NCBI GenBank assembly: GCA_965216755.1
Contig: CBDCGL010000011.1
Location: 2,304,001-2,368,000, forward strand
From: Alphaproteobacteria bacterium
GTDB taxonomy: Bacteria; Pseudomonadota; Alphaproteobacteria; UBA7887
DNA length: 64,000 bases
Reading direction: 5' to 3'
This document shows positions 257 to 57,983 of the stretch, piece after piece. How positions within the stretch are numbered: position 1 is the first letter of the stretch; each line of letters opens with the position of its first letter. Under the pieces are notes generated by a model. The model had not been told where the DNA came from. It saw only the letters and a list, made by a program, of their open reading frames with translations, and searched no databases. The position numbers were made by a program, and so were the translations under genes.

Positions 257-937
257 ATGGAGTTACTGATTGCCGTCAGCCGCGGGCTGGATGCGTTCGT
301 AACACGCGTCGGCAAATGGGCAGCTTGGCTTCTTTTGCCGATGATGGCCGTGATCATCATTGACGTCATCACTCGCAAATTTGGCCTGCTGACCGTATTG
401 CGCGACGGCCTAACCACCAGCGGCGCGGACGGTTCGGCCAAATTCGTCGAAACCTATCTCACGTCTACCAAGTTCCAGGAGCTCGAATGGCACTTACACG
501 CGGCGCTGTTCTTGCTGTGTCTGGCATTCGGATACACAAAGAACTCGCACGTGCGAATTGAGATCGTGCGCGAGCGTTTCGATCGTCAGACCAAGGCGTG
601 GTTGGAGGTGATCGGCTGCGTGTTTTTTGTCGTCCCCTACGCCTCGTTGGTCCTCTATTTCGGCATGGACTTCGCCGAAAGGTCCTTTTCCATGAATGAG
701 GTTTCCTCGGCGCTGACCGGCCTCAGCCACCGTTGGATCATCAAGTCGTTTGTCCCCATCGGAATGGTCCTGCTGCTGATGGGCACGGTCGCGGTCTTGT
801 TGCGCAATTTGGTGTTTTTGTTCGGCCCCAAGAACCTGCAGGACGAAGCCTACAATATGGCAATGGAACTGCATCGCCCCGAAGACGAGCTGCGTATGGC
901 CAAAGAGGCGTTAGCCAACAGCAAGAAGGCGGAGTAG
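257..937 (+). CDS. dctQ: TRAP transporter small permease
   Basis: 4 TM segments, ELEWHL and HVRIE motifs, RBS GGGGGA, directly upstream of dctM. Confidence 0.92.
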   Translation: MELLIAVSRGLDAFVTRVGKWAAWLLLPMMAVIIIDVITRKFGLLTVLRDGLTTSGADGSAKFVETYLTSTKFQELEWHLHAALFLLCLAFGYTKNSHVRIEIVRERFDRQTKAWLEVIGCVFFVVPYASLVLYFGMDFAERSFSMNEVSSALTGLSHRWIIKSFVPIGMVLLLMGTVAVLLRNLVFLFGPKNLQDEAYNMAMELHRPEDELRMAKEALANSKKAE

Positions 938-941
938 CACC

Positions 942-2309
942 ATGGATTTCGTTGATCTTCTACCCGTCTTCATGTTCGCGACACTGGCAGTACTGCTTTT
1001 CAGCGGCTATCCGGTGGCTTGGATTCTGGGTGGCGCGGGCATCGGATTCGGTTTTATCGGCCTGTATTTCGATGTCTTCTCGTTCATTGAGTTCTTCAAC
1101 ATCATATCGCGCATATGGGGTAGCGCGGCGGAAAGCCTAATCCTTGTCGCAGTGCCCATGTTCATTTTTATGGGCACAATGTTGGAACGGTCGGGCGTCG
1201 CCAATGACCTGCTCCACTGCCTGCAGGTCTTGCTGCGTCGCGTGCCGGGCGGCTTGGCGTTGTCTGTGACGATCATGGGCACGATCATGGCCGCGACGAC
1301 CGGCATTATCGGTGCATCCGTCGTTATGATGACGCTGCTGGCACTGCCGATCATGATCGATCGCGACTACTATGTGCCGCTCGCCACCGGAACCATCGCC
1401 GCGTCCGGTACCCTCGGTATTTTGATACCGCCAAGCATCATGCTGGTGATTATGGCCGACCTCTTGTCGATCTCGGTCGGCACGTTGTTCCTGGCCGCGA
1501 TCTTGCCAGGGCTGGTGCTGTCCGGTTTGTACTTGGTCTACATATTCTTGCGCACGCGCATCAATCCGCAATTGGCACCGCCTCTGCCAGGAAATATCGG
1601 GCCCGAGAGCCGCGCGGCACTTTTCACCATGGTGATGCGCAGTTTCGTGCCGCCGATTATGTTGATCGTTTTCGTGCTGGGTTCAATTTTCGCCGGGTGG
1701 GCAACACCGACCGAGGCTGCCGGGGTTGGCGCTTTGGGGGCTGTGCTGCTGGCGATATTCAATCGGAAATTGAATTTCCCAGTGTTGAAGGATGTGTTGG
1801 AACGCTCGGCGCTGACCGTCGCCATGATTTTCGGCATTTTCATCGGCGCGACCTGTTTCTCATACGTCTATCGGTCGCTCGGCGGCGATGACCTTGTCCA
1901 TGAATTCGTCACCCATATCGGCTTGGGCTCTTGGGGTCTGCTGTTCTTGATGATGGGCATGGTGTTCGCGCTCGGCTTTTTCTTCGATTGGATCGAAATC
2001 ACGCTGATCGTTCTTCCGCTTTTCGCACCGATCATGCGGACGATGGATTTCGGTAATCATATCCCCTTTGCCGTCGATATCGTGCCGTGGATCGCCATCC
2101 TGCTGGCTGTTAACCTGCAGACATCTTTTTTGACGCCCCCATTCGGTTTTGCGTTGTTCTATATGAAAGGTGTCGCACCACCGATGGTCAAGATGCAGCA
2201 GATTTATCGGGGCATCATTCCATTTGTGGCACTGCAGCTGCTTGGCCTGGCCGCGGTAATCATTTTCCCCGCCCTGGCGCTGTGGTTGCCGCACGTGATG
2301 CTGGATTGA
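942..2309 (+). CDS. dctM: TRAP transporter large permease
   Basis: Highly hydrophobic; GTLGILIPPS, TPTEAA and SFLTPPFG motifs. Confidence 0.95.
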   Translation: MDFVDLLPVFMFATLAVLLFSGYPVAWILGGAGIGFGFIGLYFDVFSFIEFFNIISRIWGSAAESLILVAVPMFIFMGTMLERSGVANDLLHCLQVLLRRVPGGLALSVTIMGTIMAATTGIIGASVVMMTLLALPIMIDRDYYVPLATGTIAASGTLGILIPPSIMLVIMADLLSISVGTLFLAAILPGLVLSGLYLVYIFLRTRINPQLAPPLPGNIGPESRAALFTMVMRSFVPPIMLIVFVLGSIFAGWATPTEAAGVGALGAVLLAIFNRKLNFPVLKDVLERSALTVAMIFGIFIGATCFSYVYRSLGGDDLVHEFVTHIGLGSWGLLFLMMGMVFALGFFFDWIEITLIVLPLFAPIMRTMDFGNHIPFAVDIVPWIAILLAVNLQTSFLTPPFGFALFYMKGVAPPMVKMQQIYRGIIPFVALQLLGLAAVIIFPALALWLPHVMLD

Positions 2310-2353
2310 ACGCCAGGCGATGGACCCAGCATTACGACCATGTGGGGCGCGGC

Positions 2354-3139
2354 CTAGGTTGTTTCGGACCGTTGTTCGAGAGCTTGTTGAACCAAGCGCG
2401 CTTGGTCGTCGACTGAAATGTCCGCCACCGACGGCACCTCGAACTTGCGATCTTCGTAGACGACCGCGTCCGGATTGCCGGCCTGCCAAACTTGGGCGGC
2501 GTCATCGCGTTCCTTGAGCAGCCATTCGATTTGCGGTCGGAACAGCCGCAGCATGGCCGTAACCCAGCGATTCGCCGGCCAAGACGGCACCGCATGGTCG
2601 ATGACGAATAGATCGATCAAGCGGCAGACATCGTCAGCCTTGTACCAAGATTCGCCGGTGACCCAGCGATTGGTCGTGAATATCCGAAACGGGTAGCCCG
2701 CGTTGTCCATCGAAATGCCGATGATATGGCTGAGCGCGTCCTTTCCAATCGGCCGTTTGACCGACTCGGGCATGTCAACCGGGCACATCGTCTCCGGCAT
2801 GCCCTTGACCCGCACAAATGTATGGAAATGGCCGTGCTCCGTGCCCCGCAATCCCTGTTTGTGCGCATGATAGTAATATTGGGCATGCGTATCGCGGTCG
2901 TACACGTCACCTTTGGGATAGTGATTCCATTCGGTAAACGTGCCCTGCCCACGCAGCAATTCGCCAACCACATTGGACCCGCCCTTGGTCAGCACACGGT
3001 AGCATTCGGCTATTTCGGCCGCGGCCGCGGCCATCTCTTCGAGCCGCTCGGTCGGTAGAGCCGTGGGCGGCAACGGCCCGCTCGCTGCCTCGCGGCGAAC
3101 CAGTGATTTCTGCAATGCTTCAACATCCAAATTCACCAT
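2354..3139 (-). CDS. Conserved hypothetical protein with His-rich metal-binding motifs (DUF6969-like)
   Basis: HYPKGDVYD, QYYYHAH, EHGHFHTF and FTTNRWVTGE motifs. ATG at 3139 is preceded by GGAG; alternative GTG at 3154. Family name from memory. Confidence 0.75.
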   Translation of the reverse strand: MVNLDVEALQKSLVRREAASGPLPPTALPTERLEEMAAAAAEIAECYRVLTKGGSNVVGELLRGQGTFTEWNHYPKGDVYDRDTHAQYYYHAHKQGLRGTEHGHFHTFVRVKGMPETMCPVDMPESVKRPIGKDALSHIIGISMDNAGYPFRIFTTNRWVTGESWYKADDVCRLIDLFVIDHAVPSWPANRWVTAMLRLFRPQIEWLLKERDDAAQVWQAGNPDAVVYEDRKFEVPSVADISVDDQARLVQQALEQRSETT

Positions 3140-3165
3140 GACCGCAATCTCCACATTTCAGGCGC

Positions 3166-3330
3166 TAGAGAAGTGTCCGACAATCTTGAACCATTCTGCC
3201 AGAGCGCATTTTCGTCAAGATCAAGTCACTGTCCGGAGGGCGTATCAGAAATACGGCTAAGAACATCGCCGTCGAGATTGTCACAAAATCGCTCCGGCAG
3301 AATGGTTCAATATGGTCGGAAAGTGCTCTA
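3166..3330. mobile_element. 165-bp MITE-like palindromic element (TAGAG...CTCTA)
   Basis: Left arm TAGAGAAGTGTCCGACAATCTTGAACCATTCTGCCAGAGCG; reverse complement of right arm TAGAGCACTTTCCGACCATATTGAACCATTCTGCCGGAGCG. TA at both ends. Confidence 0.75.
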
Positions 3331-4188
3331 ATTTGTGGGCTCGCGTACCAAACGGAAGCCTATCAAGATGTGCTTGATATCGGCCGGGCGCGAATGCCGC
3401 GCCGCCGGCCGACAAACGCCGCAGCCTCGGTCGTCCCAAGAGCCTCCTTTGACAATGTAGCGGCCATTTTGGCCAGGCGTCACTGTCCACTCGAACACTT
3501 GCCCAGCCATGTCCAGGGCCCCGAACGGGCTTACGCCGCGCGGGAATCGGCCGACGGGCGTGGTCGCGAACGGACCCAAATCATGGCTGTTCAGCCGCAT
3601 CGGGTCGAATTCGTTGCCCCAGGGAAACCACCGACCATCGGCGCCACGTGCGGCTTTTTCCCATTCCAACTCGGTCGGCAGACGCCAGGTCTGAGCCGTC
3701 CGCTCACTCAGCCACCCGGCATAGGCGTGCGCATCGGCGATAGTCACCAACACCACGGGATGGTCATCGCGCCCTGGTGGCGGGCCGCCTTGCCAGCGAT
3801 ATGGTGCTGTCCGTTCATAGGGGTGGATCAGCCGATAAGACGCCCATGTCTCAGGGTCAACATCCGGCTCTTGCCGCCAGTGCCCAAGAACCGCAGCCTC
3901 ATATTGTGCGTTGGTGATCGGCGTTCTGGTAATCCAAAAACCACCTGTTTCATGGATTTCGCGTGGTCGCTCGCGATCGTACCAACCGCGTTCGCGGGTG
4001 CGACTGTGGCCGTATGCCGCCTCGTCCAATTGGTAGGCCGCCTCGCGCTCCGCCGAATCGGAACCGGCGAAAAACGGCCCCGCCGGTACCCAGACGACAT
4101 CGGGAATAACGACATCGTCCGCAACAACGCAGGCGCCCGTGAACGTGGCCCCCAACACCAAAACAGCTCCAGCGATCAAATCGCGCAT
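3328..4188 (-). CDS. Formylglycine-generating enzyme (SUMF1/FGE-sulfatase) family protein, probably exported
   Basis: HPVVLV, RLPTELEWEKAARG, DMAGQVFEW, KGGSW..CGVCRPAAR and IGFRLV motifs. Hydrophobic N-terminus with a possible lipobox FTGA-C from ATG 4188. Confidence 0.9.
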   Translation of the reverse strand: MRDLIAGAVLVLGATFTGACVVADDVVIPDVVWVPAGPFFAGSDSAEREAAYQLDEAAYGHSRTRERGWYDRERPREIHETGGFWITRTPITNAQYEAAVLGHWRQEPDVDPETWASYRLIHPYERTAPYRWQGGPPPGRDDHPVVLVTIADAHAYAGWLSERTAQTWRLPTELEWEKAARGADGRWFPWGNEFDPMRLNSHDLGPFATTPVGRFPRGVSPFGALDMAGQVFEWTVTPGQNGRYIVKGGSWDDRGCGVCRPAARHSRPADIKHILIGFRLVREPTN

Positions 4189-4354
4189 TCGCAAATGTCC
4201 GGAATTGCCTTCCTCACCCGCATTAGATAGCCATTTTGTCATGGGCCATGTGTATAGCTGACGCAATTGTGATAACGATAAATGTTGTTCGTTGTTCGCG
4301 TAACACGTTCAATAAGAAACTGAAAACGACCTATAGACCGAGTGGAGGAAAAGC

Positions 4355-4612
4355 ATGAAACCGATCCTGAAGAGCACCCGCACCCGTCTTCTTTCCAGCA
4401 CCGTCGTGATTGCTGCCGCATTGGCAATGGCGCAGCCGGCCGCTGCCCAATGCAACGCCTGCAATCCGTGCGGTGCCGAAGCCGCGTGTAGTGCCTGCAA
4501 TCCTTGCAATCCCTGCGCCGCAGCCGCGTGCAATCCTTGCAATCCCTGCGCCGCAGCCGCGTGCAATCCTTGCAATCCCTGCAGTGCATGCAATCCTTGC
4601 AGCGCTGAATAA
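4355..4612 (+). CDS. Secreted cysteine-rich repeat peptide (CNPC repeats)
   Basis: GGAGG RBS; 31-aa signal peptide ending AQPAAA; 54-aa mature part with 15 Cys in CxxC spacing; followed by an intrinsic terminator. Confidence 0.85.
4496..4582 (+). repeat. Perfect 33-bp tandem repeat (about 2.6 copies) encoding [11 protein letters not shown]
   Basis: TGCAATCCTTGCAATCCCTGCGCCGCAGCCGCG at 4496 and 4529; partial copy at 4562. Confidence 0.95.
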
Positions 4613-4635
4613 GGATCTGTGATAGGTTCAAGAAC

Positions 4636-4665
4636 TGCCTTGGCCAAGGCCAAGGCATTTTTTTT
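4636..4665 (+). terminator. Rho-independent terminator of the Cys-rich peptide gene
   Basis: TGCCTTGGCC-aa-GGCCAAGGCA hairpin followed by T8. Confidence 0.9.
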
Positions 4666-4728
4666 GTCAGCATTGTTTGGACCCGCCGACAGGCAAACGA
4701 TCATCGTTGGGATTAGGCACCACCAACC

Positions 4729-5229
4729 ATGACCTTGACCGACACCGTACCGCCAAGGCGTTCAGCAATACCCAGTGGTACACTAAGATATTTCTTGGCG
4801 ATAGTTTGGCTATTCGCCTGGACCGTCGGCGTTGCACGTGCCGATGGCGAGGTCGGCTCCGAAATCAGCGCCCCCGATGCGCTTGCCTTGGTGGAAAGAA
4901 ACGATCTTACGATCATCGACGTCCGCCGGCCTTCGGAGTGGCGCGACACGGGCCTGCCAGTCGGCGCCGTCGGCATCAGCATCCACAATATGATCTACCT
5001 GGAACGCAGTGCTTTCATCGACGATGTCCGCGACGCGGTCGGCGGCCAGACCAACCGACCCATTGCTGTGATTTGTGCGGCCGGGGTGCGTTCGGCGCGT
5101 GCCCAAGAGCTGTTGAGAGAAGCCGGATTTACTGCCGTCGTCGACATCAACGAAGGCATGCTCGGCAATGGTCATGCCCCGGGTTGGATGGCCCGGGCCC
5201 TGCCGACGGTCCCTTGCCCGAATTGCTAA
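4729..5229 (+). CDS. Rhodanese-like domain protein with signal peptide
   Basis: IIDVRRPSEW; active-site loop ICAAGVRS; hydrophobic N-terminus ending ARA; C-terminal CPNC. Confidence 0.88.
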   Translation: MTLTDTVPPRRSAIPSGTLRYFLAIVWLFAWTVGVARADGEVGSEISAPDALALVERNDLTIIDVRRPSEWRDTGLPVGAVGISIHNMIYLERSAFIDDVRDAVGGQTNRPIAVICAAGVRSARAQELLREAGFTAVVDINEGMLGNGHAPGWMARALPTVPCPNC

Positions 5230-5320
5230 CGCGTGGCGCAGATCAACCCTGAGTCGGTACTTCCCATTCGGCCCGGGACAGGATCATGGGTCAATACATA
5301 ACCGTTTCGGTGCCAAAAGG

Positions 5321-5334
5321 TTGATCGCCATCGC
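5321..5334 (+). promoter_or_regulatory. Possible FNR/FixK-type box upstream of cytochrome c2
   Basis: TTGAT-cgcc-ATCGC matches TTGAT-N4-ATCAA at 8 of 10 positions, 100 bp before the ATG. Confidence 0.3.
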
Positions 5335-5433
5335 GCGGATCACTAGATTACGGGGCGTCATCGCCCATCCACCCCGCGGCCGCGAGGCGGGCGCACGGCT
5401 CAAAGAAGAATGGTACCGGAGAGGACTAAACTC

Positions 5434-5820
5434 ATGAAATACCGCGACCTGCTTGTCGCTGCCGGTTTTGGCGTGATCGCCGCAGCGGTTTCGATGCCGG
5501 CCTTGGCGCAAGGTGATGCCGAAGCCGGTAAGAAAGTCTTCAATAAATGCAAGGCCTGCCACACCCTTGAGGCAGACGGCAAGAACAAAGTTGGCCCCAA
5601 TCTGCATGGCATTTTTGGTCGCACGGCGGGGGCCGCCGAAGGCTTTAAATACTCTGCTGCAATGCAGGAATCGGGTATTGAGTGGAACGACGAAACAATC
5701 GCTGGGTATTTGGCAAATCCGAAGGAATACTTGCCGAAGAACAAGATGGCCTTCCCAGGCTTGAAAAAAGAAGACGATCTCGCAAACGTGATTGCGTATT
5801 TGAAAGAGAACACCCAGTAA
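5434..5820 (+). CDS. Class I cytochrome c (c2/c550 type)
   Basis: Signal peptide, CKACH haem motif, GPNLHG, axial Met in KNKMAF, RBS GAGGA. Confidence 0.95.
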
Positions 5821-5847
5821 AGCCAGGGGCAAGATCTCCGTTTTTTG

Positions 5848-5875
5848 GAAGGCCGGAACGCCCGTTCCGGCCTTC
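5848..5875 (+). terminator. GC-rich hairpin after cytochrome c, probable terminator
   Basis: GAAGGCCGGAACG-cc-CGTTCCGGCCTTC; weak U-tract. Confidence 0.6.
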
Positions 5876-5964
5876 GTCGTTTGGGCCGTCCGCCTGGGTC
5901 GCACGTTGACCATTCCTGAACTGGCGTGGCAAGTTGGCATTCGTCATATCGGGGAGAGGGACCC

Positions 5965-6561
5965 ATGGAACTCACCGGACGCTATCAAATTCCGGTGCCG
6001 CGTGCGCAGGTCTGGCAAGCCCTCAATGATCCAGACACTTTGCGCGCATGCCTGCCCGGCGTTGAAAGCTTGGAGAAGGTGTCGGAAACCGAATTCGCCG
6101 CGACGGTTGCCGCCAAGGTTGGCCCTGTTAAGGCGAGGTTTTCGGGTCGTGTCACGCTGCACGATCTGGATCCACCAAACAGCTACACGATCAAGGGCGA
6201 AGGCCAAGGTGGAGTCGCCGGTTTCGCGAAAGGCAGCGCCGATGTCGCGCTGGCAGATGCAACCGACGCCGACGGTGGCGGCACGGTACTGAGCTATGTC
6301 GCCGATGCCCAAGTCGGTGGCAAGTTGGCGCAGATCGGCTCGCGCTTGGTCGCTGGAACCGCCAAGAAGATGGCCGATGAATTCTTCGGCGCCCTTGTCG
6401 ACCATATCGCCCCGGCCGCCAGCGCTGCGGATGCCGCGACAGGACAGGTCGGCGCACTCTCCACGCCGCCAAGCGCCGCGCGCTGGACCGCGCCCCCCTG
6501 GCTCTGGGTAAGTGGTCTGATCTTGCTCGTGGCCGCGATCTTGGCGCTGATCGCCGCTTGA
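5965..6561 (+). CDS. coxG: CoxG (SRPBCC) protein with C-terminal membrane anchor
   Basis: VWQALNDP...CLPG, VGGKLAQIGSRL, C-terminal TM helix. Confidence 0.92.
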   Translation: MELTGRYQIPVPRAQVWQALNDPDTLRACLPGVESLEKVSETEFAATVAAKVGPVKARFSGRVTLHDLDPPNSYTIKGEGQGGVAGFAKGSADVALADATDADGGGTVLSYVADAQVGGKLAQIGSRLVAGTAKKMADEFFGALVDHIAPAASAADAATGQVGALSTPPSAARWTAPPWLWVSGLILLVAAILALIAA

Positions 6562-6644
6562 CCTGATGCCTTTGCGGCCACAGACTTATCAACAAATACG
6601 CCGTGCTCGCGCGTCCGAGCTATTTACATAGGGAGGCAATAATT

Positions 6645-7115
6645 ATGGCCATCACCGTATCGATGACGGTGAACGGCAAGGCCGTGTCGGCAGACGTCGA
6701 AAGCCGAACCTTGCTGGTTCACTATTTGCGCGATCATTTGGGCCTGACGGGAACGCATGTCGGCTGCGATACCAGTCAATGTGGTGCGTGCGTCGTGCAT
6801 GTGGACGGCAAAGCTGTCAAATCCTGCACCATGCTCGCGATCCAGGCCCAAGGCGCCGGCGTTGTTACAATCGAAGGTTTGGCGGATGGCGACCAATTGC
6901 ATCCCATGCAAGCTGCGTTTCGCGAGCATCACGCGCTGCAATGCGGGTTTTGTACGCCAGGGATGGTGATGAGCGCCGTTGACCTGGTGACACGCCACCC
7001 AAATCCGAGCGAAGAGACAGTGCGTGAAGGCCTTGAAGGCAATCTGTGCCGCTGCACCGGCTATCACAATATCGTCAAGGCGATCCAGACCGGCGCCAAG
7101 GCTATGGGAGGTTGA
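6645..7115 (+). CDS. coxS: Mo-hydroxylase / CO dehydrogenase-like small (2Fe-2S) subunit
   Basis: [18 protein letters not shown] and NLCRCTGY motifs. Confidence 0.95.
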
Positions 7116-7119
7116 GGCG

Positions 7120-9480
7120 ATGACCGAGCATGGAGTCGGCGCGCGGGTCGCGCGCAAAGAAGATCGGCGGTTCTTGCGTGGCGCGGGCCGCTATGTGGAC
7201 GACATTAATCGGCCGGGCCAAGCCCATGCCTGGATTGTCCGCTCGCCACACGCGCACGCCACACTGAACGGAATCGACACCGCCGCCGCCAAAGTGGCGC
7301 CCGGGGTGATGGCTGTCTTCACCGGCGACGACCTGGCGGCTGCGGGCGTTGGTGGCCTGCCTTGCGGATGGCAAATCCACAGCAAAGACGGCGCCCCAAT
7401 GGCCGAGCCGGCGCACCCGGTGTTGGCCCAAGGCAAGGTCCGCCATGTCGGCGATCCGGTCGCGGTGGTGATCGCGGAAACGCGCTCGCAAGCCCGCGAC
7501 GCAGCCGAGCAGGTCGCGGTCGACTATGGTCCACTGCCGGGCGCGGTCAACACCGCCACGGCGTTCGCCGATGGCCAACCGCAGGTGCACGACGAAGCCG
7601 CCAACAACACTTGCTACGACTGGGAATTCGGCGACAAAGCGGCCACCGATGCCGCCTTCGCCAATGCCCACAAGGTCGCCAAACTCGACTTGATCAATCA
7701 ACGTTTGGTGCCCAACGCCATCGAACCGCGGGCTGCAATTGGCGAATACGACAGCGCCGACGATCGCTATACCCTCTATACCACCAGCCAAAACCCACAC
7801 GTGATCCGGCTTCTCATGTGTACGGCGGTGCTGGGCCTGCCGGAAACCAAAGTACGCGTCGTATCGCCGGACGTCGGCGGCGGGTTTGGTTCGAAGATCT
7901 ATCACTATGCCGAAGAAGCGATCGTCACCTGGGCAACGCGCCAAATCGGCCGGCCGGTGAAATGGACCGCGGATCGCACCGAGTCATTTATTAGCGATGC
8001 ACAAGGCCGCGACCACGTGACCCATGCGGAAATGGCCCTCGACGCCGAGGGAAAGTTTCTCGGCATGCGGGTCTCCACGGTGGCCAATCTCGGCGCCTAT
8101 TTGTCGACCTTCTCGTCGGCGATCCCGACCTATTTCCACGCGCCGCTGTTGGCCGGAGTCTATACCACGCCGGCGATCTATATCGAAGTTCGCGGTGTGT
8201 TCACGCACACGGTCCCGGTGGACGCGTATCGTGGCGCTGGCCGGCCGGAGGCCTGCTATCTGATCGAACGCATGGCCGATGTGGCCGCGCGGGAAATGGG
8301 CCTCAGCCCAGCCGAAATCCGTCGCCGCAATATGATCCAAGAGTCCCAACAGCCCTACGCCACGCCGATCGCCATGGTCTATGACGGCGGCGACTACGGG
8401 AAGAACATGGCCGATGCGCTGAAGGCCGCCGATGCGGACGGTTTGGCGGCCCGCAAAACGGCATCCGAAGCAGCCGGCAAGCTGCGAGGGCTCGGCCTGG
8501 CCTGTTATATCGAAGCCTGTGGCGCGGCCCCTTCGGCCGTCGCCGGCCAATTGGGCGCGCGCGCCGGCCTATATGAGATGGCGACCGTGCGGGTCAACCC
8601 CAGCGGCTCGATATCGGTGATCACCGGCACCCACAGCCATGGTCAAGGCCACGAAACCACTTTTGCCCAACTCGTCGCCGATCGCCTGTCGGTTCCCTTG
8701 GAGCAGATCGAAGTCGTCCATGGCGATACCGACAAAATCCCGTTCGGCATGGGCACATATGGGTCGCGCTCGCTGCCGGTGGGCGGCACCGCCCTGGTCA
8801 ATTCGATCGACAAAGTGATCGAAAAGGGCAAGAAGATCGCGGCGCATATTTTGGAAGCGGCGGCCGAAGATATCGAGTTTTCCCAGGGTAGTTTTGCCGT
8901 CAAGGGCACCGATCGCGCGCTAGCATTTGCCGAGGTCGCAGGCGCCGCCTACGTGCCACACAACTATCCGCTTGAAACGCTTGAACCGGGCTTGGAGGAG
9001 ACATCCTATTTCGATCCGCCGAATTTCACCTTCCCAAGTGGATGCTATGTGTGCGAGGTCGAAATCGACAAGGCAACGGGCGCGGTCTCGATCGACCGAT
9101 TTACGGCCGTCGATGATTTCGGCGTTGTCATCAACCCGACCATTGTCGAAGGCCAAGTGCATGGCGGCTTGGTGCAGGGCATCGGGCAAGCCTTGTACGA
9201 ACATTGCGTCTACGACGATAGCGGACAGTTGATCAGCGGTAGCTACATGGACTACTGCATGCCGAAGGCCGATGGCGTGCCAAGTTTCGCGGTCAGCACC
9301 AATGTCTCGCCCAGCCCAACCAATCCGTTGGGTGTGCGCGGTTGCGGCGAGGCTGGCGCGATCGGCGCGCCACCCGCCGTGATCAACGCCATTGTCGACG
9401 CGCTCAGCGCGTATGGCGTCAGCCATATCGATATGCCAGCGACCCCGGAAAAAATCTGGCGCTTGATTCAAGCGGCTTAA
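7120..9480 (+). CDS. coxL: Mo-hydroxylase large subunit, form II CoxL-like
   Basis: [16 protein letters not shown] (form II signature), HGQGHET and GEAG motifs. Confidence 0.92.
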
Positions 9481-9496
9481 GATCGGAGGCAGAACA

Positions 9497-10291
9497 ATGT
9501 ATCCCTTTACCTACCATCGCCCAGATTCGTCGGCCGCCGCGCAAAGCCTGTTTCGGGGCGCCGATGATCCGAAGTTTCTTGCCGGCGGCATGACTTTGAT
9601 CCCGACCATGAAACAACGGCTTGCGGCGCCGAGCGATCTGATCGATCTGGCCGGCATCGGCGACCTCGCCGGAATCACGGCCGATGGCGACACCGTCGTG
9701 ATCGGCGCCATGACCACGCATGCCGCCGTTGCCGCCAATGCCACCGTCAACGAGAAGATCCCCGCCCTGGCCGCGCTGGCCGGGGATATTGGCGATCCGC
9801 ATGTGCGCAATTGCGGCACCATCGGCGGGTCGATTGCCAACAATGACCCAGCGGCCGACTATCCCGCGGCCGTACTCGGCCTTAGCGCCACTGTGGTCAC
9901 CGATCAGCGTGAAATCGCCGCCGATGATTTCTTTACGGGCATGTTCGAAACCGCTTTGGGCGACAATGAACTGATCACCGCTGTACGGTTTCCCAAGCCG
10001 CAGGCCGCCTGTTACGTCAAGTTCCCAAATCCAGCATCGCGTTACGCGATTGCTGGCGTCATGGTCGCGCGCACCGACAGCGGTGTGCGCGTCGCGGTGA
10101 CCGGTGCCGCGCCTTGTGTGCATCGCGCGACAGCGTTGGAAGACGCACTCAGCGGGTCGTTTTCCGCCGACGCTGTCGAAGGTATCACGATACCAGCCGA
10201 CGACCTGAACAGCGATATTCACGCAAGCGCGGAATATCGCGCGCATCTGGTTGGCGTGATGGCGCGCCGTGCCGTCGCAGGATGCGGTTGA
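9497..10291 (+). CDS. coxM: Mo-hydroxylase FAD-binding medium subunit
   Basis: AGGMTL, GTIGGSIANNDPAAD and KFPNPASRYA motifs. Confidence 0.93.
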   Translation: MYPFTYHRPDSSAAAQSLFRGADDPKFLAGGMTLIPTMKQRLAAPSDLIDLAGIGDLAGITADGDTVVIGAMTTHAAVAANATVNEKIPALAALAGDIGDPHVRNCGTIGGSIANNDPAADYPAAVLGLSATVVTDQREIAADDFFTGMFETALGDNELITAVRFPKPQAACYVKFPNPASRYAIAGVMVARTDSGVRVAVTGAAPCVHRATALEDALSGSFSADAVEGITIPADDLNSDIHASAEYRAHLVGVMARRAVAGCG

Positions 10292-10315
10292 CCGGGCTGA
10301 GTCGGTTACCAAGGC

Positions 10316-10348
10316 GAAAGGGTGGCGTCACGCCGCCCTTTCTTTTTT
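10316..10348 (+). terminator. Rho-independent terminator between structural and maturation genes
   Basis: GAAAGGGTGGCG-tca-CGCCGCCCTTTC followed by T6. Confidence 0.8.
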
Positions 10349-10399
10349 CGGCAACGTCGTACGCTTTGTGAAAAAACCGTTTGCCGCTAAGTTCCGTTC

Positions 10400-11338
10400 A
10401 TGACTCGTTTGCCCGATTCCATTGATGCCACGGTCGATCTACTCGCCCGCGGTGATTATGTCGCCGATCGCAGTTTGGCGACGACCATTTATTTGGCTCT
10501 GACCATGGGCCGGCCGTTGTTCCTCGAAGGCGAAGCCGGGGTTGGCAAAACAGAGATTGCCAAGGTTTTGAGCACCGCTTTGAACCGTCGGCTGGTGCGC
10601 CTGCAATGCTACGAAGGCTTGGACGTGGCAAGCGCGGTATACGAATGGAACTACGCCACCCAAATGATCGAAATACAGGCCGCCAAAGCCGAAGGAATCG
10701 AGGATCGCGAACGGCTTGTTGACGATGTGTTTTCCGAAAGGTTCCTGATCAAGCGGCCAATCCTGCGCGCGCTGGAGCACGACGCGAGCGGCGCCCCACC
10801 GGTCTTGCTGATTGACGAATTGGACCGCACCGACGAGCCGTTCGAGGCATATCTGTTGGAGGTCTTATCCGACTTTCAGGTCACGATCCCGGAAATCGGC
10901 ACGATCGCGGCACCGAAGCCGCCGGTGGTGATTATCACGTCGAACCGCACGCGCGAGATTCATGACGCGCTGAAGCGGCGCTGTCTCTATTACTGGATCG
11001 ACTATCCCGACGCCGCGCGCGAACAAAAGATCCTTTCGATCAAGGTGCCCGGCGCGGCCGAAAGACTTTCGGCCGAAGTTGTCGCATTTGTGCAGGCGTT
11101 GCGCGGGCAGGATTTGTTCAAGGCCCCGGGCATTGCCGAAACGATCGATTGGGCGAGCGCCCTTATGCAGCTCGACAAGATCACGCTGGACAACGAATCC
11201 GTCGACAGCACCCTCGGCGTACTCCTGAAATATCAAGACGACATTGCGCGGATCCAGGGCTCGGAGGCGGCCGGCATTTTGGCCGAGATCAAGTCAGACC
11301 TCGAAGCGCAGGCGGTCGTCGGCGCCGACCATGGATGA
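10400..11338 (+). CDS. coxD: MoxR-family AAA+ ATPase (CoxD-like)
   Basis: Walker A GEAGVGKT, RLQCYEG, Walker B LLIDE, HDALKRRC. Confidence 0.93.
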   Translation: MTRLPDSIDATVDLLARGDYVADRSLATTIYLALTMGRPLFLEGEAGVGKTEIAKVLSTALNRRLVRLQCYEGLDVASAVYEWNYATQMIEIQAAKAEGIEDRERLVDDVFSERFLIKRPILRALEHDASGAPPVLLIDELDRTDEPFEAYLLEVLSDFQVTIPEIGTIAAPKPPVVIITSNRTREIHDALKRRCLYYWIDYPDAAREQKILSIKVPGAAERLSAEVVAFVQALRGQDLFKAPGIAETIDWASALMQLDKITLDNESVDSTLGVLLKYQDDIARIQGSEAAGILAEIKSDLEAQAVVGADHG

Positions 11339-12542
11339 AACACCGCCCGCCGGCATGCTGGCGGCGAATATCATGCATTTCGGGCGCGTGCTGCGCGCCG
11401 CGGGGTTGCCCATCGGCAGCGGCCATATCATCCAGGCCTTGCGCGCCGTTGAAATTGCCGGCGTGCGACGCCGGGATGATGTCTATGCCGCCCTCCGCGC
11501 CGTCTTGATCCATCGCCGCGATCAGCGCGAGCTGTTCGATCAGGCATTTACCGCGTTCTGGCGCAACCCGCGCATACTCGAACGACTCATCGGCATGCTG
11601 CTGCAAGAGATGGGGGTCCCCGGTGCCGAACCCAGCGGAACAGAGGTCGGCCGGCGGCTCGCTGACGCGCTCGCCCAGGGTCGTGGCGGCACGGAACAAC
11701 AAGAGGAGGTCATCGAACTTGATGCCGCGCTGACCGCTTCGGATCGCGATGTCCTGCAAAAGCGCGATTTCGAGACCATGACAGCGGCGGAGGTCGCCGC
11801 CGCCAAAGGCGCGATCGATCGACTGGCCTTGCCCTTGGCGACAGTGCCAACCCGACGAATGGCCCCCGCAGCGGCCGGCGCCCGCGTCGATATGCGGGCA
11901 ACCCTGCGCGCGACCCTGCGCGCCGGCGGCGATGTCATTCCCTTGCGCCACCGCAAGCGTCGCGTGCGGCCGCCGCCGCTGGTCGTGCTGTGCGATATCT
12001 CCGGATCGATGGGCCGATATTCGCGTATGCTGCTGCACTTCGCACACGCCCTGACCAACGATCGCGACCGGGTCCATAGCTTTGTGTTTGGGACGCGGCT
12101 GACGAACATCACCCGCCAACTGCGCAATAAGGATGTCGATGTTGCGCTCGACGCGGTGGTCGATGCCGTCGACGACTGGTCGGGCGGTACCCGCATCGGC
12201 GCTTGTTTGCGCGCCTTCAACCAAGATTGGTCGCGGCGTGTGTTGGGCCAGGGCGCTGTGGTACTATTGATTTCGGATGGCCTGGATCGCGAAGCGGGCG
12301 ACGGGCTGGCCGCGGAAATGGATCGCTTGCATCGATCTGCGCGCCGTTTGATTTGGCTCAACCCGTTATTGCGCTATGAAGGGTTCGCGCCGAAATCCCT
12401 CGGAATCCGGGCCATGTTGCCGCATGTTGACGAATTTCGGCCGATCCACAATCTGGATAGCATCGCCGCGCTCGCTGAGGCCCTGAGCGGGACCGGCGAC
12501 AAGGGCAATGTGCTGCACGAAATGAGGCACCATGATGGATAA
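11331..12542 (+). CDS. coxE: VWA-domain CoxE-like protein
   Basis: MIDAS DISGSM, WSGGTRIG, SDG and WLNPL motifs; overlaps the end of coxD. Confidence 0.92.
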   Translation: MDETPPAGMLAANIMHFGRVLRAAGLPIGSGHIIQALRAVEIAGVRRRDDVYAALRAVLIHRRDQRELFDQAFTAFWRNPRILERLIGMLLQEMGVPGAEPSGTEVGRRLADALAQGRGGTEQQEEVIELDAALTASDRDVLQKRDFETMTAAEVAAAKGAIDRLALPLATVPTRRMAPAAAGARVDMRATLRATLRAGGDVIPLRHRKRRVRPPPLVVLCDISGSMGRYSRMLLHFAHALTNDRDRVHSFVFGTRLTNITRQLRNKDVDVALDAVVDAVDDWSGGTRIGACLRAFNQDWSRRVLGQGAVVLLISDGLDREAGDGLAAEMDRLHRSARRLIWLNPLLRYEGFAPKSLGIRAMLPHVDEFRPIHNLDSIAALAEALSGTGDKGNVLHEMRHHDG

Positions 12543-12855
12543 GAGCGAAGACATTCTGGGCACTGCCGCCGCGTGGCGCGAAGAAGGCCGTGACGTGGCC
12601 CTCGCCACCGTCGTTTCCACTTGGGGTTCGAGCCCACGCCCGGCCGGTAGCCAACTGGTGGTCGATGATCAGGGCGGAATGGTCGGCTCGGTCTCTGGCG
12701 GCTGCATCGAAGGCGCGGTGGTTTTGGAAGCACAGGCGGCTATCGAGGATGGCGAACCACGCTTGTTGACTTTCGGCGTCAGCAACGAGCAAGCCTGGGA
12801 AGTCGGTCTTGCCTGCGGCGGCACGGTCCAAGTATTTGTCGAAAAGGTTGGCTGA
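12532..12855 (+). CDS. XdhC/CoxF family protein, N-terminal half
   Basis: WGSSPRPAG, GSVSGGCIE and GLACGG motifs. Confidence 0.9.
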   Translation: MMDKSEDILGTAAAWREEGRDVALATVVSTWGSSPRPAGSQLVVDDQGGMVGSVSGGCIEGAVVLEAQAAIEDGEPRLLTFGVSNEQAWEVGLACGGTVQVFVEKVG

Positions 12856-12858
12856 GCC

Positions 12859-13578
12859 GTGAAACAAGAAACGCTAGACGCCTTGAACGCGGCGCGTGCC
12901 GCCCTGCAGCCAATCGCGCTCGCCACGCGACTCGAAGACGGCGCCCAATGGTTGATCGTGCCCGACCAAGCCACGACCGACGCGCCAACGGAGATTGTAG
13001 AGGCGGCGCAGGTTGCCCTGTTCGACGACCAAAGCCGGACAGTCGAAACTGACCTGGGCGCGGTGTTTCTGCAGGTACACAATCCGCCGCTGCGCATGGC
13101 AATCATCGGCGCCGTGCATATCGCCCAAGCCCTGGCACCCATGGCGACGCGTGCCGGCTTTGCTGTCACGGTTATTGATCCACGCGGCGCGTTCGCTACC
13201 GAAGACCGTTTCCCGGGCGTGATCATTTCCGATGAGTGGCCCGACGACGCCATGACGGCCTTGGCGCCCGACCGACGCACGGCCGTTGTCACTTTGACCC
13301 ACGATCCGAAGTTGGACGACCCGGCGCTCGATGTCGCACTCAAGTCCGAGGCCTTCTATGTTGGCAGCTTGGGCAGTAAGAAGACGCACGCGGCACGTCG
13401 CCAGCGCCTGCGCGACATGGGCTTCGACGACACCGTCATCGACCGCATACGTGGCCCTATCGGTTTGTCGATCGGCGCCAAATCGCCGGCGGAGATCGCG
13501 GTGTCAATTTTGGCACAGATTATCGAGGCCCGGCGCAATCCACCCAATTCGGCAACCGCGACGGACCGGGCGGCGTGA
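12859..13578 (+). CDS. XdhC family protein, Rossmann (C-terminal) half
   Basis: GAVHIA, THDPKLD, YVGSLGS and PIGLSIGAKSPAEIAVSI motifs. Confidence 0.9.
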   Translation: MKQETLDALNAARAALQPIALATRLEDGAQWLIVPDQATTDAPTEIVEAAQVALFDDQSRTVETDLGAVFLQVHNPPLRMAIIGAVHIAQALAPMATRAGFAVTVIDPRGAFATEDRFPGVIISDEWPDDAMTALAPDRRTAVVTLTHDPKLDDPALDVALKSEAFYVGSLGSKKTHAARRQRLRDMGFDDTVIDRIRGPIGLSIGAKSPAEIAVSILAQIIEARRNPPNSATATDRAA

Positions 13579-16841: not shown

Positions 16842-19694
16842 TCATGTCGTCGGCGGCCGTGCCGGTTCATGAGCCAAGTCCGGCTCGCCGCATTGGGAAA
16901 GCACCGCGGCGCGAACCTGATCGCGGAGTGAGAGCACGTCCGACCAATCATCGGACTTGGCTACAATTGCCGGCAGAATCGTCACTATGACCCGGCCGCT
17001 GCGGGCGAAGCCGCCGGTCCCGCGCAGAACCGCGCGGGTGCCGCGGATCGCCACCGGAATGACCGGCGCGCGCGCACGCGCCGCCGTCACAAAAGCGCCC
17101 ATATGAAACGGGCGCAGGCCCGGGCGCCGATCAAATGTGCCCTCGGGAAACACGACCAGCGCGTCGCCCTTGGCCAGCGTCGCACCCAATTGATCGACAT
17201 CGTTGAGGCTCGCCCGAGGGTCGATTCGTTCCACAAACACTGTGCCGAGGCGGCGCAAGAATGAGCCGGCGATCAGAGGTGTCGCCAATTCGCGCTTGGC
17301 GACAAACGCGCATCGCGGCGGCAAGACGGCACTCAATACCAAGCTATCGAGATAGCTCGCGTGGTTCGCCACGAACACGACCGGCCCATCGGTGACATGC
17401 TCGGCGCTCATGACCTCGGGGGCGAGCCCGGTCCAGCGCAGCATCAGCCGCGCCGCGCCGCGCAAGATGCAACGTCGCCGGCGGAGCCCCGGTGCCGCTA
17501 CTACGGCGCCCCAAACCGAAGGCGCCAATCCCAAATAGACAATCCTGAACCATGCCGCGAACGCGAAGGCGCCAATCGCACGGACAACGCGCTGCCACGC
17601 CGGTCGCACGCTTGCCCCGAAAAGCAACAGAAACCGGTGCCAGGGCGCCGCTGGCGGCTTATCAAGTCGCCCGCTTTCATAAAGTTGGCGGCAGGCCGCG
17701 CGACGTATCTTGCCGTTGTTCGTTTTGAGAACAGTTCCCGGCTGTGCCAAGACGATGTCGTCCGGGGGAAGTTCAGCGTGCGACGTGACCACTCGGCGGA
17801 CTTCACCGGCGAGGATTTCGCGTGCCGCCCGGTCGCGTTTTCGGGTTTCGGCCAACACGACCAACTTTTCCGTACCCGATGCCACACTGGAGACCGCGAA
17901 GACCGCGACCCGGCCTTTGCGCACGCCATCGATATTGCCGATGGCCGTTTCGATTTCGTCCGGATACAGGTTGCGCCCAGCGCGAACGATGATGTCCTTT
18001 TCGCGCCCGGTAATAAACAACTCGCCGTCGGCGATATAGCCCAAATCACCGGTATTGACCCAACCATCGTCAAACAACGCGGCGGTTTTGTCTGGTGCCC
18101 GATAATAGCCGGCAGTTGCCGACGGGCCGCAAAACTGAATCCGGCCAACCTCGCGATCGCCCGCTTCACTGCCGCCAGATCCGACCACACGCACCTGATG
18201 ACCAGCGATGGGCACCCCGCAGCTGACAATGTCCAACGCCGAGGCGTCACGCGCCGACGACGGCTGTGCGCGGCCCTTCCGCGCCAAGGCGGCGCGGTCG
18301 ATTCGATCGATCCGGGGACCCCGCTGCAACGGTGTGATCGTCACGGCAACGGCATTTTCGGCCAGGCCATACATCGGCGTCATCGCCCTTGGATCGAACC
18401 CATGGTCAGCAAACCGTCGATTAAATTTATCGATGGTCACGCCACTGACAGCCTCGGCCCCCGTGCCCGCCATACGCCAAGACGACAGATCGATGTCTGC
18501 CAGATCCGCATCGCGCAGGCGCGTCGCACACATTTCAAAGGCAAAGTTTGGTGCCGCCGAAAGCGTGCCGCCATGTTGTGTGATGGCGCGCAGCCAGCGC
18601 GACGGCCGTGCCATAAATCGCAACGGTGGTATGCATATCATTGGGCAACCATAGGTAAGACTGCCCAACCAATGACCGATCAACCCCATGTCGTGATAAA
18701 GCGGCAACCAATTCACGACCACGTCGTCGGGGGTCGCACGGATGGCATGGGCCAACCCGTGAATATTGGCGACAAGATTAGCATGGCTCAGCACAACACC
18801 TTTCGGATCGCCGGTGCTGCCGGACGTATATTGCACCAGCGCGGGCGCTTCCGGCGCCAAATCCGGCCACATTGGTCGCGCGCCGCTGCGGCGCAAATCA
18901 TCGGGAGCCACGATATGTGTCAGGCTTTCGACTTGCGCCTGAACCAATTGGCAAAACCGGCCAATCTCGGTTGGGGCGACAAGAATGGGCGCGCGCGCAT
19001 TGCGCAGAATGGCGGCTTGTCGCATGACATGATCGACCAGATGCCCGCTCGGCGCCGGCGGGTAGAGGGGCACCGGCACGGCACCCGCGATCAGAGCGCC
19101 AAAAAAGCAATAGAAAAAATCCGCGCAGGTCGGCAGCATCGTGGCCACGGCTTGCCCCGACCCAATGCCGAGTTCCCCAAGCCCGGCTGCTATCGCCTGC
19201 GCGCCATGCCACAAATCGTCGTAGGTCAACGGCGGCGTGTCGTCATCTGTGCCAGACAACTGCACATGGGCACGGTCTGGATGCGCCGTGCAGTGTGCCT
19301 CAAGAACTTGGAGCAAGGTGGTCGCCTGGCGCGGCACGCTTACGGTGCCGGTGCCGCCGCTGCGCAGCGGCGCGGCCGCCCAATCGGCCGGCGCCAGCGC
19401 CTGTCCCGCCCACGTCAAGGCCTCAGCCAGATCTGCAGGCGTTGCGGCCGCCATCACGATTTCTTCCGAGAGCCGCGTATCGAACGCGTGTTCGATCCGC
19501 GCCAGCAGTTCGGCACGACCCAAACTGTCGATGCCGAAGTCCTGATCGAGCGATGCGTCGGGCCCAAGCTCGACCAGATCGCGACGCCGCGGCTGCATTT
19601 CCGTGGCCAGTTCGCGCACCAACGCGACCACGCGCGCTTCGCGTGCCGGCGTCGTGGCGGCCCCATCCGAGCACTGAGAGGGATCCCTGGACAT
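16842..19694 (-). CDS. Trimodular ACP - fatty acyl-AMP ligase - PlsC-type acyltransferase
   Basis: GIDSL phosphopantetheine site; QYTSGSTGDPKG, WLPLYHDMGLIG, YGLAE and TGD; NHASYLD and FPEGT. Confidence 0.9.
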   Translation of the reverse strand: MSRDPSQCSDGAATTPAREARVVALVRELATEMQPRRRDLVELGPDASLDQDFGIDSLGRAELLARIEHAFDTRLSEEIVMAAATPADLAEALTWAGQALAPADWAAAPLRSGGTGTVSVPRQATTLLQVLEAHCTAHPDRAHVQLSGTDDDTPPLTYDDLWHGAQAIAAGLGELGIGSGQAVATMLPTCADFFYCFFGALIAGAVPVPLYPPAPSGHLVDHVMRQAAILRNARAPILVAPTEIGRFCQLVQAQVESLTHIVAPDDLRRSGARPMWPDLAPEAPALVQYTSGSTGDPKGVVLSHANLVANIHGLAHAIRATPDDVVVNWLPLYHDMGLIGHWLGSLTYGCPMICIPPLRFMARPSRWLRAITQHGGTLSAAPNFAFEMCATRLRDADLADIDLSSWRMAGTGAEAVSGVTIDKFNRRFADHGFDPRAMTPMYGLAENAVAVTITPLQRGPRIDRIDRAALARKGRAQPSSARDASALDIVSCGVPIAGHQVRVVGSGGSEAGDREVGRIQFCGPSATAGYYRAPDKTAALFDDGWVNTGDLGYIADGELFITGREKDIIVRAGRNLYPDEIETAIGNIDGVRKGRVAVFAVSSVASGTEKLVVLAETRKRDRAAREILAGEVRRVVTSHAELPPDDIVLAQPGTVLKTNNGKIRRAACRQLYESGRLDKPPAAPWHRFLLLFGASVRPAWQRVVRAIGAFAFAAWFRIVYLGLAPSVWGAVVAAPGLRRRRCILRGAARLMLRWTGLAPEVMSAEHVTDGPVVFVANHASYLDSLVLSAVLPPRCAFVAKRELATPLIAGSFLRRLGTVFVERIDPRASLNDVDQLGATLAKGDALVVFPEGTFDRRPGLRPFHMGAFVTAARARAPVIPVAIRGTRAVLRGTGGFARSGRVIVTILPAIVAKSDDWSDVLSLRDQVRAAVLSQCGEPDLAHEPARPPTT

Positions 19695-56084: not shown

Positions 56085-56087
56085 GCC

Positions 56088-56615: not shown

Positions 56616-56618
56616 GCC

Positions 56619-57911: not shown

Positions 57912-57983
57912 CGCACCCACACGGCCATCATCTGCTATAACCGCGCCAAAATCCCGCACATCGCATGGGCCAGGAGGATATGA

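Follow-up and report, generated by a model that had tools for sequence, protein, structure and literature searches.

Bufferins and oxazolins are copper-binding periplasmic members of the RiPPs (peptides that are made by ribosomes and modified after translation) and are modified by MNIO enzymes, as set out in the accessible parts of two reports (PMC12452194, bioRxiv 10.1101/2024.03.18.585515). The accessible part of the former also mentions rare fusion proteins that join Buf1, Cytochrom_C and FGE-sulfatase domains (PMC12452194). In the formylglycine-generating enzyme (FGE) two active-site cysteines hold copper, the substrate cysteine is bound and the enzyme acts on the motif [C/S]-x-P-x-R, according to the available part of a third report (bioRxiv 10.1101/2021.05.21.445229). 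A locus that associates a secreted Cys-rich peptide with an FGE-like protein is found in the 64-kb stretch of an alphaproteobacterial contig, CBDCGL010000011.1, analysed here (the window), whose open reading frames (ORFs) were searched with Pfam and NCBIfam profiles. An earlier reading of the DNA letters, the original prediction, had proposed that five genes of this locus form a system: a Cys-array peptide of 85 amino acids (4355-4612, + strand), a His-motif protein of 266 amino acids related to DUF6969 (2354-3154, - strand), an exported protein of the FGE family (3328-4266, - strand), an exported rhodanese (4729-5229, + strand) and a cytochrome c with a signal peptide (5410-5820, + strand). 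The five genes sit where they had been placed, with all the features described for them.

This locus is one copy of a real, conserved and widespread gene module, hitherto undescribed, whose core consists of an exported Cys array and a cytoplasmic DUF6969 protein. About two thirds of the genomes with arrays add an exported FGE-fold protein, usually transcribed in the same direction as DUF6969. Class I cytochrome c, a P-C-x-x-C rhodanese, YeeE/YedE-type sulfur transporters and DUF302 proteins are recurrent accessories. Literature searches outside the subscription journals brought up no paper on DUF6969, on cytochrome P460 together with cysteine-rich proteins or on a pairing of FGE with Cys peptides and, judged by titles and abstracts, none on NPC repeats or on FGE-tailored RiPP precursors.

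Conservation of the array module

The distribution of the module was followed in 301 genomes of the window's class, which are related, so that their counts are descriptive and overstate independence. DUF6969 occurs in 67 of them (66 of 300 without the unpublished genome G240). The NPCNPC pattern is matched in 37 genomes, and 26 encode a member of the FGE subclade (profile A2, E<=1e-40). All 27 genomes with at least two NPCNPC matches carry DUF6969, against the 67 of 301 overall. Ten genomes have a single match; DUF6969 is present in three, and the other seven were fetched and hold no array. The FGE subclade is accompanied by DUF6969 in 25 of its 26 genomes, and in 21 of these 25 no more than ~2 kb separates the two genes. 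The NPCNPC pattern is found in 19 of the 26 FGE genomes. The other seven comprise four with arrays of a different unit (loci L185-L188), two that are too fragmented and one (G042) with a lower-scoring FGE that has neither partner nearby. The linkage between arrays, DUF6969 and FGE is conserved and not a product of chance; of the partner genes, DUF6969 shows the tightest linkage to arrays.

A scan for the pattern CNPCNPCAA, taking one genome per species, gave at least 107 stretches, 80 of them with up to 10 kb of flank; all counts of array loci given below refer to these listed matches. They come mostly from marine Alphaproteobacteria (Rhodospirillales, Kiloniellales, Sneathiellales, Hyphomicrobiales), with some Gammaproteobacteria (Granulosicoccaceae, Vreelandella). 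Named isolates account for L045 (Aestuariispira insulae CECT 8488), L069 (Denitrobaculum tricleocarpae R148), L037 and L063 (Pelagibius sp.) and L043 (Vreelandella utahensis). Comparison of the window proteins with the ORFs of the 107 loci by phmmer yielded 40 for DUF6969, 25 for FGE, 52 for P460, 12 for cytochrome c and five for the rhodanese. Removal of four contig duplicates and of four loci without a called array ORF left 99 listed loci, 34 of which have at least 5 kb on both sides. Within 5 kb of the array, DUF6969 is found at 34 of the 99 loci and at 19 of the 34 well-flanked ones, while P460 genes are found at 48 and 21, respectively. FGE is encoded at 21 and 10, all ten with DUF6969. 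The corresponding numbers are 12 and seven for YeeE/YedE (PF04143 at 4.9e-62), 10 and six for cytochrome c, seven and four for DUF302, and five and two for the rhodanese. Neither DUF6969 nor FGE lies within 5 kb in 15 of the 34 well-flanked loci, which may represent second copies as found in the window's genome. The co-occurrence of peptide, DUF6969 and FGE genes, proposed as a check in the original prediction, is found both in the well-flanked loci (DUF6969 at 19 of 34, FGE as well at 10) and across genomes (27 of 27 for arrays, 21 of 25 for adjacency to FGE).

The third commonest neighbour of arrays is a secreted protein of ~168 amino acids with three conserved Cys that belongs to no family, found within 5 kb at 15 of the 99 and six of the 34 well-flanked loci (L026 1932-2438 and 14 others, e.g. 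L020, L021, L035 and L037). Searches of Pfam, NCBIfam and PDB sequences gave no match for it, and a search of the window's genome with the same query did not find it.

Seen from the side of DUF6969, an array ORF is present at 13 of 29 loci examined with 1.5-kb flanks. Regions of 14 kb were also collected round DUF6969 at 37 loci, 33 picked for having no FGE beside DUF6969 (absent or encoded elsewhere) and four FGE-positive; among these, 13 have a gene of the cytochrome c family no more than 4 kb away and 12 a P460-like gene. Several loci (L185, L188, also L089) have a block that runs from DctM to rhodanese and cytochrome c, followed by DUF6969 and FGE on the opposite strand and then by a P460 gene. 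The gene order of the window is a rearranged form of this block. Roughly one in five of the genomes sampled from the class has DUF6969, and the module is its first functional context, as the original prediction had hoped, and one that can be tested.

At seven or more loci (window 257-2309; L034, L089, L150, L174, L185, L188), a gene for the DctM subunit of a tripartite ATP-independent periplasmic (TRAP) transporter lies a few kb or less from DUF6969, sometimes together with a TAXI-type receptor. This recurrence may be a matter of shared synteny and not of shared function.

Components of the module

The peptide gene is preceded by a strong ribosome-binding site, GGAGGA at 4344-4349, 5 nt upstream of its ATG. 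This motif is within the divergent intergenic region that separates the gene from the FGE-like gene (4189-4354), where no match to the sigma-70 consensus was found. A search for sequencing runs listed none from RNA; the four DNA data sets listed belong to a single study. An intrinsic-terminator-like hairpin with a 9-bp stem (six G-C pairs) followed by T8 lies downstream at 4636-4665 on the + strand, in a scan that overall gave five sites against 3.9 expected from shuffles. Both signals had been ascribed to the gene from the start, as had the composition of its product: a signal-like amino-terminal segment (residues 1 to ~31, delimited by eye) and a repeat core with 15 Cys in residues 33-82. 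Eleven of the 14 intervals between these Cys are of three residues. The core holds eight overlapping CNPC and eight NPC units, and runs of three to five Cys at i, i+3, i+6. Within the gene, 2.6 copies of a 33-bp unit form a perfect tandem repeat (4496-4582, + strand; 100% matches and a score of 174 in Tandem Repeats Finder) that encodes units of 11 residues and suggests that the number of repeats changed recently.

Neither Pfam nor NCBIfam has a profile that matches the peptide. A database search retained 485 proteins (clusters) at E<=0.01 out of 1372 candidates, mostly from marine metagenomes, and the 24 relatives that were read all have a signal peptide and NPC repeats; one is labelled 'YHS domain-containing protein' by its source. 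The reversed pattern, used as control, has no match in the 301 genomes, and the architecture of the peptide is beyond chance. In 4,580 Cys contexts from 238 distinct family sequences, a set picked by likeness to NPC repeats and whose percentages reflect that choice, successive Cys are spaced by three residues in 63% and by six in 15%; N-P precedes the Cys in 65% and x-P follows it in 56%. The arrays have no Arg at +4. The P460 proteins of three FGE-positive loci feature (CGAC)n rather than NPC tails. What is conserved is therefore a Cys spacing of three residues, in NPC or CGAC units, which is wider than the CNPC repeat put forward originally, present as that is in the window's peptide. Arrays contain seven to 60 Cys and are found free, as peptides of 70-150 amino acids, or as amino-terminal tails on P460-type and SoxA/TsdA-type c-cytochromes. 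Such period-3 Cys arrays are abundant and occur on several periplasmic haem proteins, yet they have neither a name nor a Pfam model. Binding of Fe-S clusters by CxxCxxC was considered and ruled out by inference, Sec export of an unfolded peptide being unfit for a preloaded cluster.

Array fusions involve P460 (PF16694), SoxA/TsdA-type cytochrome c and DM13 domains, and the array-bearing cytochromes have 200-500 amino acids. The SoxA/TsdA-type fusions are from genomes of Vreelandella, Nitrospinota and Granulosicoccaceae, and the DM13 fusion from an Acidimicrobiia genome (loci L043 8954-10090, L061 2549-3151, L018 1-938 and L028 164-910). The P460 fusions encoded beside FGE and DUF6969 have (C-G-A-C)n tails with 26-44 Cys (L185 7848-9146, L187 4666-5748, L188 7196-8479), and a motif in the middle of these tails, C-[VY]-[VI]-P-R-[LI], is conserved in many others. 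Two P460-like proteins of the L154/L155 loci, encoded next to DUF6969 and cytochrome c, are entirely devoid of Cys and hence of a site for haem c. One P460 protein of the same loci has a second NPC array inserted inside its haem domain (L154 1215-2165, L154 5592-6728, L155 5283-6356).

The window's genome has two more array genes. One codes for an exported protein of 389 amino acids (contig 11, 507305-508474, - strand; locus L011 7305-8474) with a signal peptide, ~200 residues of CNPC/CGAC repeats and a carboxyl-terminal P460-type domain with CADCH. Its match to PF16694 is marginal (27.4 bits for a cut-off of 27; 30.9 bits in the genome search, where five P460-family matches were found), and its tail domain has no sequence match to solved P460 structures in a phmmer search of the PDB. 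The gene sits between glmS-side genes without DUF6969 or FGE nearby. It is likely that this array-P460 protein is the haem partner of the window's module, encoded elsewhere. The third paralogue is a degenerate peptide of 81-95 amino acids (contig 11, ~4779663-4779950, - strand; locus L200 6663-6950) which shares the amino terminus of the window's peptide and has DAENPCAA repeats with seven Cys. Its gene is convergent with an OMF-MFP-RND operon of the CusCBA/CzcCBA type, whose pump has its best match in the CusA/CzcA family at 622 bits, under the cut-off of 701.

The DUF6969 protein is a full member of PF22308 (280 bits for a cut-off of 27, 1.2e-83, profile positions 2-201 of 201) and not merely similar to the family, as had first been supposed. 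The YYYHAH and EHGHFH motifs noted at the outset are present, and most of their His are invariant in 34 relatives. The alignment of 34 sequences shows invariant H78, H96, H98, E106, H109, H111 and H143, together with several Asp, Asn, Arg and Trp; in these sequences a signal peptide is absent and the amino terminus is variable. The AlphaFold (AF2) model is confident, with a predicted local distance difference test (pLDDT) of 87 and a predicted template-modelling score (pTM) of 0.85. Its fold has no Foldseek match in the PDB at E<=1e-3 and a best Z of 3.7 in VIA-align; a PDB profile search gave a chance match only (E 0.11), and the ESM Atlas no usable match. Longer or fused DUF6969 forms were not found at E<=1e-10. 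The idea that DUF6969 recognises an RLLSST-type signal motif was dropped, since DUF6969 equally adjoins peptides with MLKKT-type signals. The genome codes for a second DUF6969 copy, 55% identical to that of the window (contig 11, 142409-143008, + strand; loci L002 and L012). It adjoins an amidohydrolase-like gene, and within 6 kb of it there is neither an array nor a gene for FGE, cytochrome or rhodanese.

The FGE-like protein matches PF03781 with 150.1 bits (cut-off 23.3, 1.2e-43). Its ORF opens at TTG 4266, while the true start is likely the ATG at 4188 (MRDLIAGAVLVLGATFTGAC...), from which the protein would have a signal peptide; export and divergence from the peptide gene agree with the original prediction. 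The 22 sequences of the subclade have hydrophobic amino termini and an invariant GGSWDD.GCG[VI]CR.AARH segment, in which C285 is invariant and C282 is found in at least 90%. Foldseek relates the fold to ToxD, CalU17, EgtB, OvsA, PvdO and FGEs with template-modelling (TM) scores of 0.55-0.65 and, for FGE, EgtB, OvsA and PvdO, E values of 1e-12 to 1e-18; the closest solved relatives by sequence are ToxD and CalU17, not FGE. In HMMER alignments Cys is missing from PorK and pFGE at both positions of the C-G-[VI]-C pair. In FGE the Cys pair is in the same loop, which there follows GGSY, and it may or may not be equivalent to the C-G-[VI]-C pair residue by residue. An exported FGE-fold subclade with a Cys pair of its own would widen the known range of this enzyme family. 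A complex prediction for residues 45-312 of the FGE-like protein (alignment A2) with the peptide core 31-85 scored 0.00; it was run without controls and gives no verdict.

The rhodanese matches PF00581 (42.2 bits for a cut-off of 22.2) and has a signal-like amino terminus, the catalytic loop CAAGVRS (CxxGxR[ST]) and a carboxyl-terminal CPNC, so that the exported enzyme with catalytic Cys and CPNC end is as first described. Eight relatives from cluster loci have a signal peptide; the ICAxGxRS loop is found in seven (in L078 the sequence stops where the locus ends) and P-C-x-x-C at the carboxyl terminus also in seven, one ending in PCEC. Exported rhodaneses of this type occur in 24 of the 301 genomes (E<=1e-15), 18 of which are DUF6969-positive, nine with the gene within 2 kb of DUF6969. 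The rhodanese belongs to a dedicated exported subfamily and is a recurrent accessory of the module. The cytochrome, proposed to be a cytochrome c2, is a class I cytochrome c with a CKACH motif (PF00034, 50.5 bits for a cut-off of 21.3), but the c2 assignment finds no support in the NCBIfam CycA equivalog NF043008 (113.7 bits for a cut-off of 240). It is likely a redox partner of P460-type array proteins. It could equally serve the cox-like genes (molybdenum hydroxylase) found directly 3' of it at 5926-13575, which are coxG/S/L/M-like and followed by AAA-ATPase, CoxE-type VWA and XdhC genes.

On its other side the locus is flanked by dctQ (257-937) and dctM (942-2309), both on the + strand and assigned by Pfam. 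A second TRAP system (DctP, DctQ, DctM) is encoded at 55062-59590 of the window and is followed by genes for a small cytochrome c and an FAD-dependent oxidoreductase. Two other proteins look ordinary: one of 950 amino acids with carrier, AMP-binding and acyltransferase domains (16845-19694, - strand) and one of 484 amino acids made nearly entirely of pentapeptide repeats (42568-44019, + strand).

Possible roles of the arrays

The arrays may act as periplasmic carriers or buffers of thiols, sulfane sulfur or redox equivalents, served by dedicated partners. This reading is tentative and is the one preferred here. The fusions to P460, SoxA/TsdA and DM13 domains, the dedicated rhodanese, YeeE/YedE and DUF302 tie such a carrier to haem electron transfer and to sulfur traffic. 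The FGE-like fold also counts in its favour, as the FGE, EgtB and OvsA proteins that it matches all bind thiol or selenol substrates. The CxxC units of the arrays would cycle between dithiol, disulfide and persulfide or polysulfide states. The rhodanese could load sulfane sulfur, possibly selenium, onto them, and haem domains would withdraw electrons and hand them to cytochrome c, the haem domain in the window's genome being that of the separate array-P460 protein. With its thiol-binding scaffold and its own Cys pair, which would either bind Cu(I) or work as a redox disulfide, the FGE-like protein might oxidise array Cys or exchange with them. DUF6969 would be a metal-binding cytoplasmic protein that might handle the precursor before Sec export, or else whatever the system brings into the cytoplasm. 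Should sulfur, selenium, metals or electrons indeed be carried by the arrays, these would represent a periplasmic carrier of a new type, and P460-type cytochromes of non-nitrifying bacteria would have to be read differently.

Several observations weigh against a carrier of this kind. DUF6969 and the mature peptide are in different compartments: for lack of a signal peptide, DUF6969 cannot meet the exported peptide in the periplasm. The FGE subclade is absent from 11 of the 30 array genomes, and those are 92-100% complete; 37 DUF6969-positive genomes have no NPCNPC pattern, and DUF6969 also adjoins P460-like proteins that lack Cys and haem. Neither partner can therefore be tied to arrays alone. 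The relatedness of the genomes counted also lowers the weight of the linkage. The sulfur theme rests on accessories, as rhodanese (five of the 99 listed loci) and YeeE (12 of 99) are minority neighbours, and sox, dsr, sqr or psr genes are not among the 30 largest conserved neighbour clusters of the 99 loci. The chemistry for which P460 enzymes are known is that of hydroxylamine and NO, not that of sulfur. The Cys pair of the FGE-like protein is a CxxC, with a spacing unlike that of C336/C341 in FGE and an uncertain positional equivalence. Finally, the position of the third paralogue beside a CusCBA/CzcCBA-like pump favours a role in metal handling.

Metal buffering is the main rival and keeps real weight, even if it is rather less probable. 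In a metallothionein-like periplasmic buffer the CxxCxxC arrays would bind Cu(I), Zn, Cd, Hg or As, an FGE-like copper protein would load and unload them, and DUF6969 would be a cytoplasmic metal-binding partner or sensor. Cys runs at i, i+3, i+6 resemble metal-thiolate motifs, and the invariant His cluster of DUF6969, the relative named for a YHS domain and the RND operon convergent with the third paralogue are in line with such a role. FGE is a copper enzyme (bioRxiv 10.1101/2021.05.21.445229, available part), and fusions of bufferin, FGE and cytochrome c are read as copper-related in the accessible part of PMC12452194. The recurrent neighbours are nonetheless haem proteins, rhodanese and YeeE; the 30 largest neighbour clusters include no metal exporter, metallochaperone or metal regulator, and the RND pump is a neighbour at a single, convergent locus. 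Exported CxxC units, moreover, are oxidised by Dsb systems unless they are protected.

A more specific scheme, which is improbable as a whole, would make DUF6969 a His-cluster metalloenzyme of new fold that acts in the cytoplasm on array precursors bearing their Sec signal, as MNIO enzymes do on bufferins. The FGE-like CxxC protein would then finish or recycle the arrays in the periplasm, and the array would be a poly-thiol cofactor arm of a kind so far unknown, elaborated after translation, for sulfur, selenium or electrons, either free or on P460-/SoxA-type cytochromes.

The original prediction had allowed for a RiPP-like system or one that buffers metal or sulfur, with a tailoring chemistry of its own. 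In the tailoring version the FGE-like protein would convert array Cys covalently into formylglycine or some other oxidised form, either by itself or once DUF6969 has acted in the cytoplasm. Such tailoring is now unlikely. The FGE fold itself, the invariant Cys pair after GGSW that is particular to the subclade and missing in PorK and pFGE, the adjacency of FGE and DUF6969 (21 of 25) and the x-P that follows 56% of array Cys, as in [C/S]-x-P-x-R, are what such tailoring would lead one to expect. Bufferin precursors show, in the accessible part of PMC12452194, that peptides with a Sec signal can be modified before export. The FGE-like protein cannot, however, be an obligatory tailoring enzyme, because it is absent from the 11 of 30 array genomes mentioned above. 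The array unit is N-P-C or plain period-3 Cys and not the C-x-P of FGE substrates: conservation of N-P before Cys (65%) equals or exceeds that of x-P on the other side, FGE-positive loci include CGAC and NPCAAK arrays that have no C-x-P, and the Arg at +4 is missing. The N-P-C and CGAC units and the array genomes without FGE also weaken the idea, considered separately, that the repeats are C-x-P-x-R substrates of FGE. Arrays occur either free or as built-in tails of P460- and SoxA/TsdA-type cytochromes, which sets the system apart from a classical RiPP, and the 30 largest conserved neighbour clusters include neither a protease nor an exporter.

An adjunct to nitrogen-oxide or hydroxylamine metabolism is a quite doubtful alternative. 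The P460-type haem would be catalytic, arrays would trap products of NO or hydroxylamine or shield the haem, and the free peptide would be a detached tail. P460 domains with arrays are found in 48 of the 99 listed loci, the window's genome has five P460-family matches, and DUF6969 lies beside P460-like genes and cytochrome c even where there is no array. The 30 largest conserved clusters nonetheless include no nir, nor or hao gene, the P460 match is marginal and finds no solved P460 by sequence, arrays are fused to SoxA/TsdA and DM13 domains as well, and some P460-like proteins linked to DUF6969 lack a haem motif. That there is no system, the peptide being a free-standing low-complexity secreted protein with coincidental neighbours, would fit the two array genes and the second DUF6969 copy found elsewhere in the genome without these partners, and the 15 of 34 well-flanked loci with neither DUF6969 nor FGE; it is scarcely credible in view of DUF6969 near 19 of the 34 well-flanked arrays and in 27 of 27 array genomes against 67 of 301, and of FGE adjacent to it in 21 of 25.

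Comparison with known systems

The carrier reading preferred above can be set against systems already described. A generic RiPP pathway would not explain arrays that double as domains of cytochromes of 200-500 amino acids, nor the lack of a conserved protease or exporter among the 30 largest clusters. FGE with its sulfatases shares an exported FGE fold, a conserved Cys pair after GGSW and, in many array Cys, x-P on the following side. Here the pair is a CxxC, Arg is missing at +4 and CGAC/NPCAAK arrays have no C-x-P; no sulfatase gene is found among the window ORFs or the conserved neighbour clusters of array loci. Bacterial metallothioneins and copper storage proteins (SmtA/BmtA, MymT, Csp) are alike in their high Cys content and CxxC spacing, whereas the arrays are exported, repetitive and of low complexity, have no Pfam match and come with dedicated partner genes and haem fusions.

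Bufferins and oxazolins are also small Cys precursors with a Sec signal and conserved clusters, and oxazolins have repeated Cys motifs, according to the accessible parts of the two reports (PMC12452194, bioRxiv 10.1101/2024.03.18.585515). The array module differs in its partners, DUF6969 and the FGE-like protein, and in arrays that are also cytochrome tails. Its peptide has no Buf1/Buf2 or EGKCG signature. As the original prediction had remarked, MNIO/DUF692 is missing: the eight ORFs of 257-6561 belong by Pfam to other families or to none, and neither MNIO/DUF692 nor DUF2063 is among the scanned representatives of neighbour clusters, the small clusters having been scanned in part. In the fusions of Buf1 with cytochrome c and FGE, a Cys-peptide domain has independently been combined with a cytochrome c and an FGE domain.

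Cytochrome P460 and c'-beta (PF16694) share with the module a domain with CxxCH, present in the array-tailed paralogue and at 48 of the 99 listed loci. The peptide of the window has no haem domain, and the Pfam score of the array-P460 protein is marginal (27.4 against 27). To our knowledge, known P460s have no Cys-array tail. In the SoxYZ system of periplasmic thiosulfate oxidation, which works with SoxAX and TsdA cytochromes, the carrier Cys is a single one on SoxY, a folded protein. The arrays are instead disordered, with seven to 60 Cys, and have no SoxY/SoxZ Pfam match and no conserved sox neighbours. The two systems are alike in a proposed periplasmic Cys carrier on a flexible segment, in c-type cytochrome partners, in a rhodanese-type accessory and in the SoxA/TsdA fusions.

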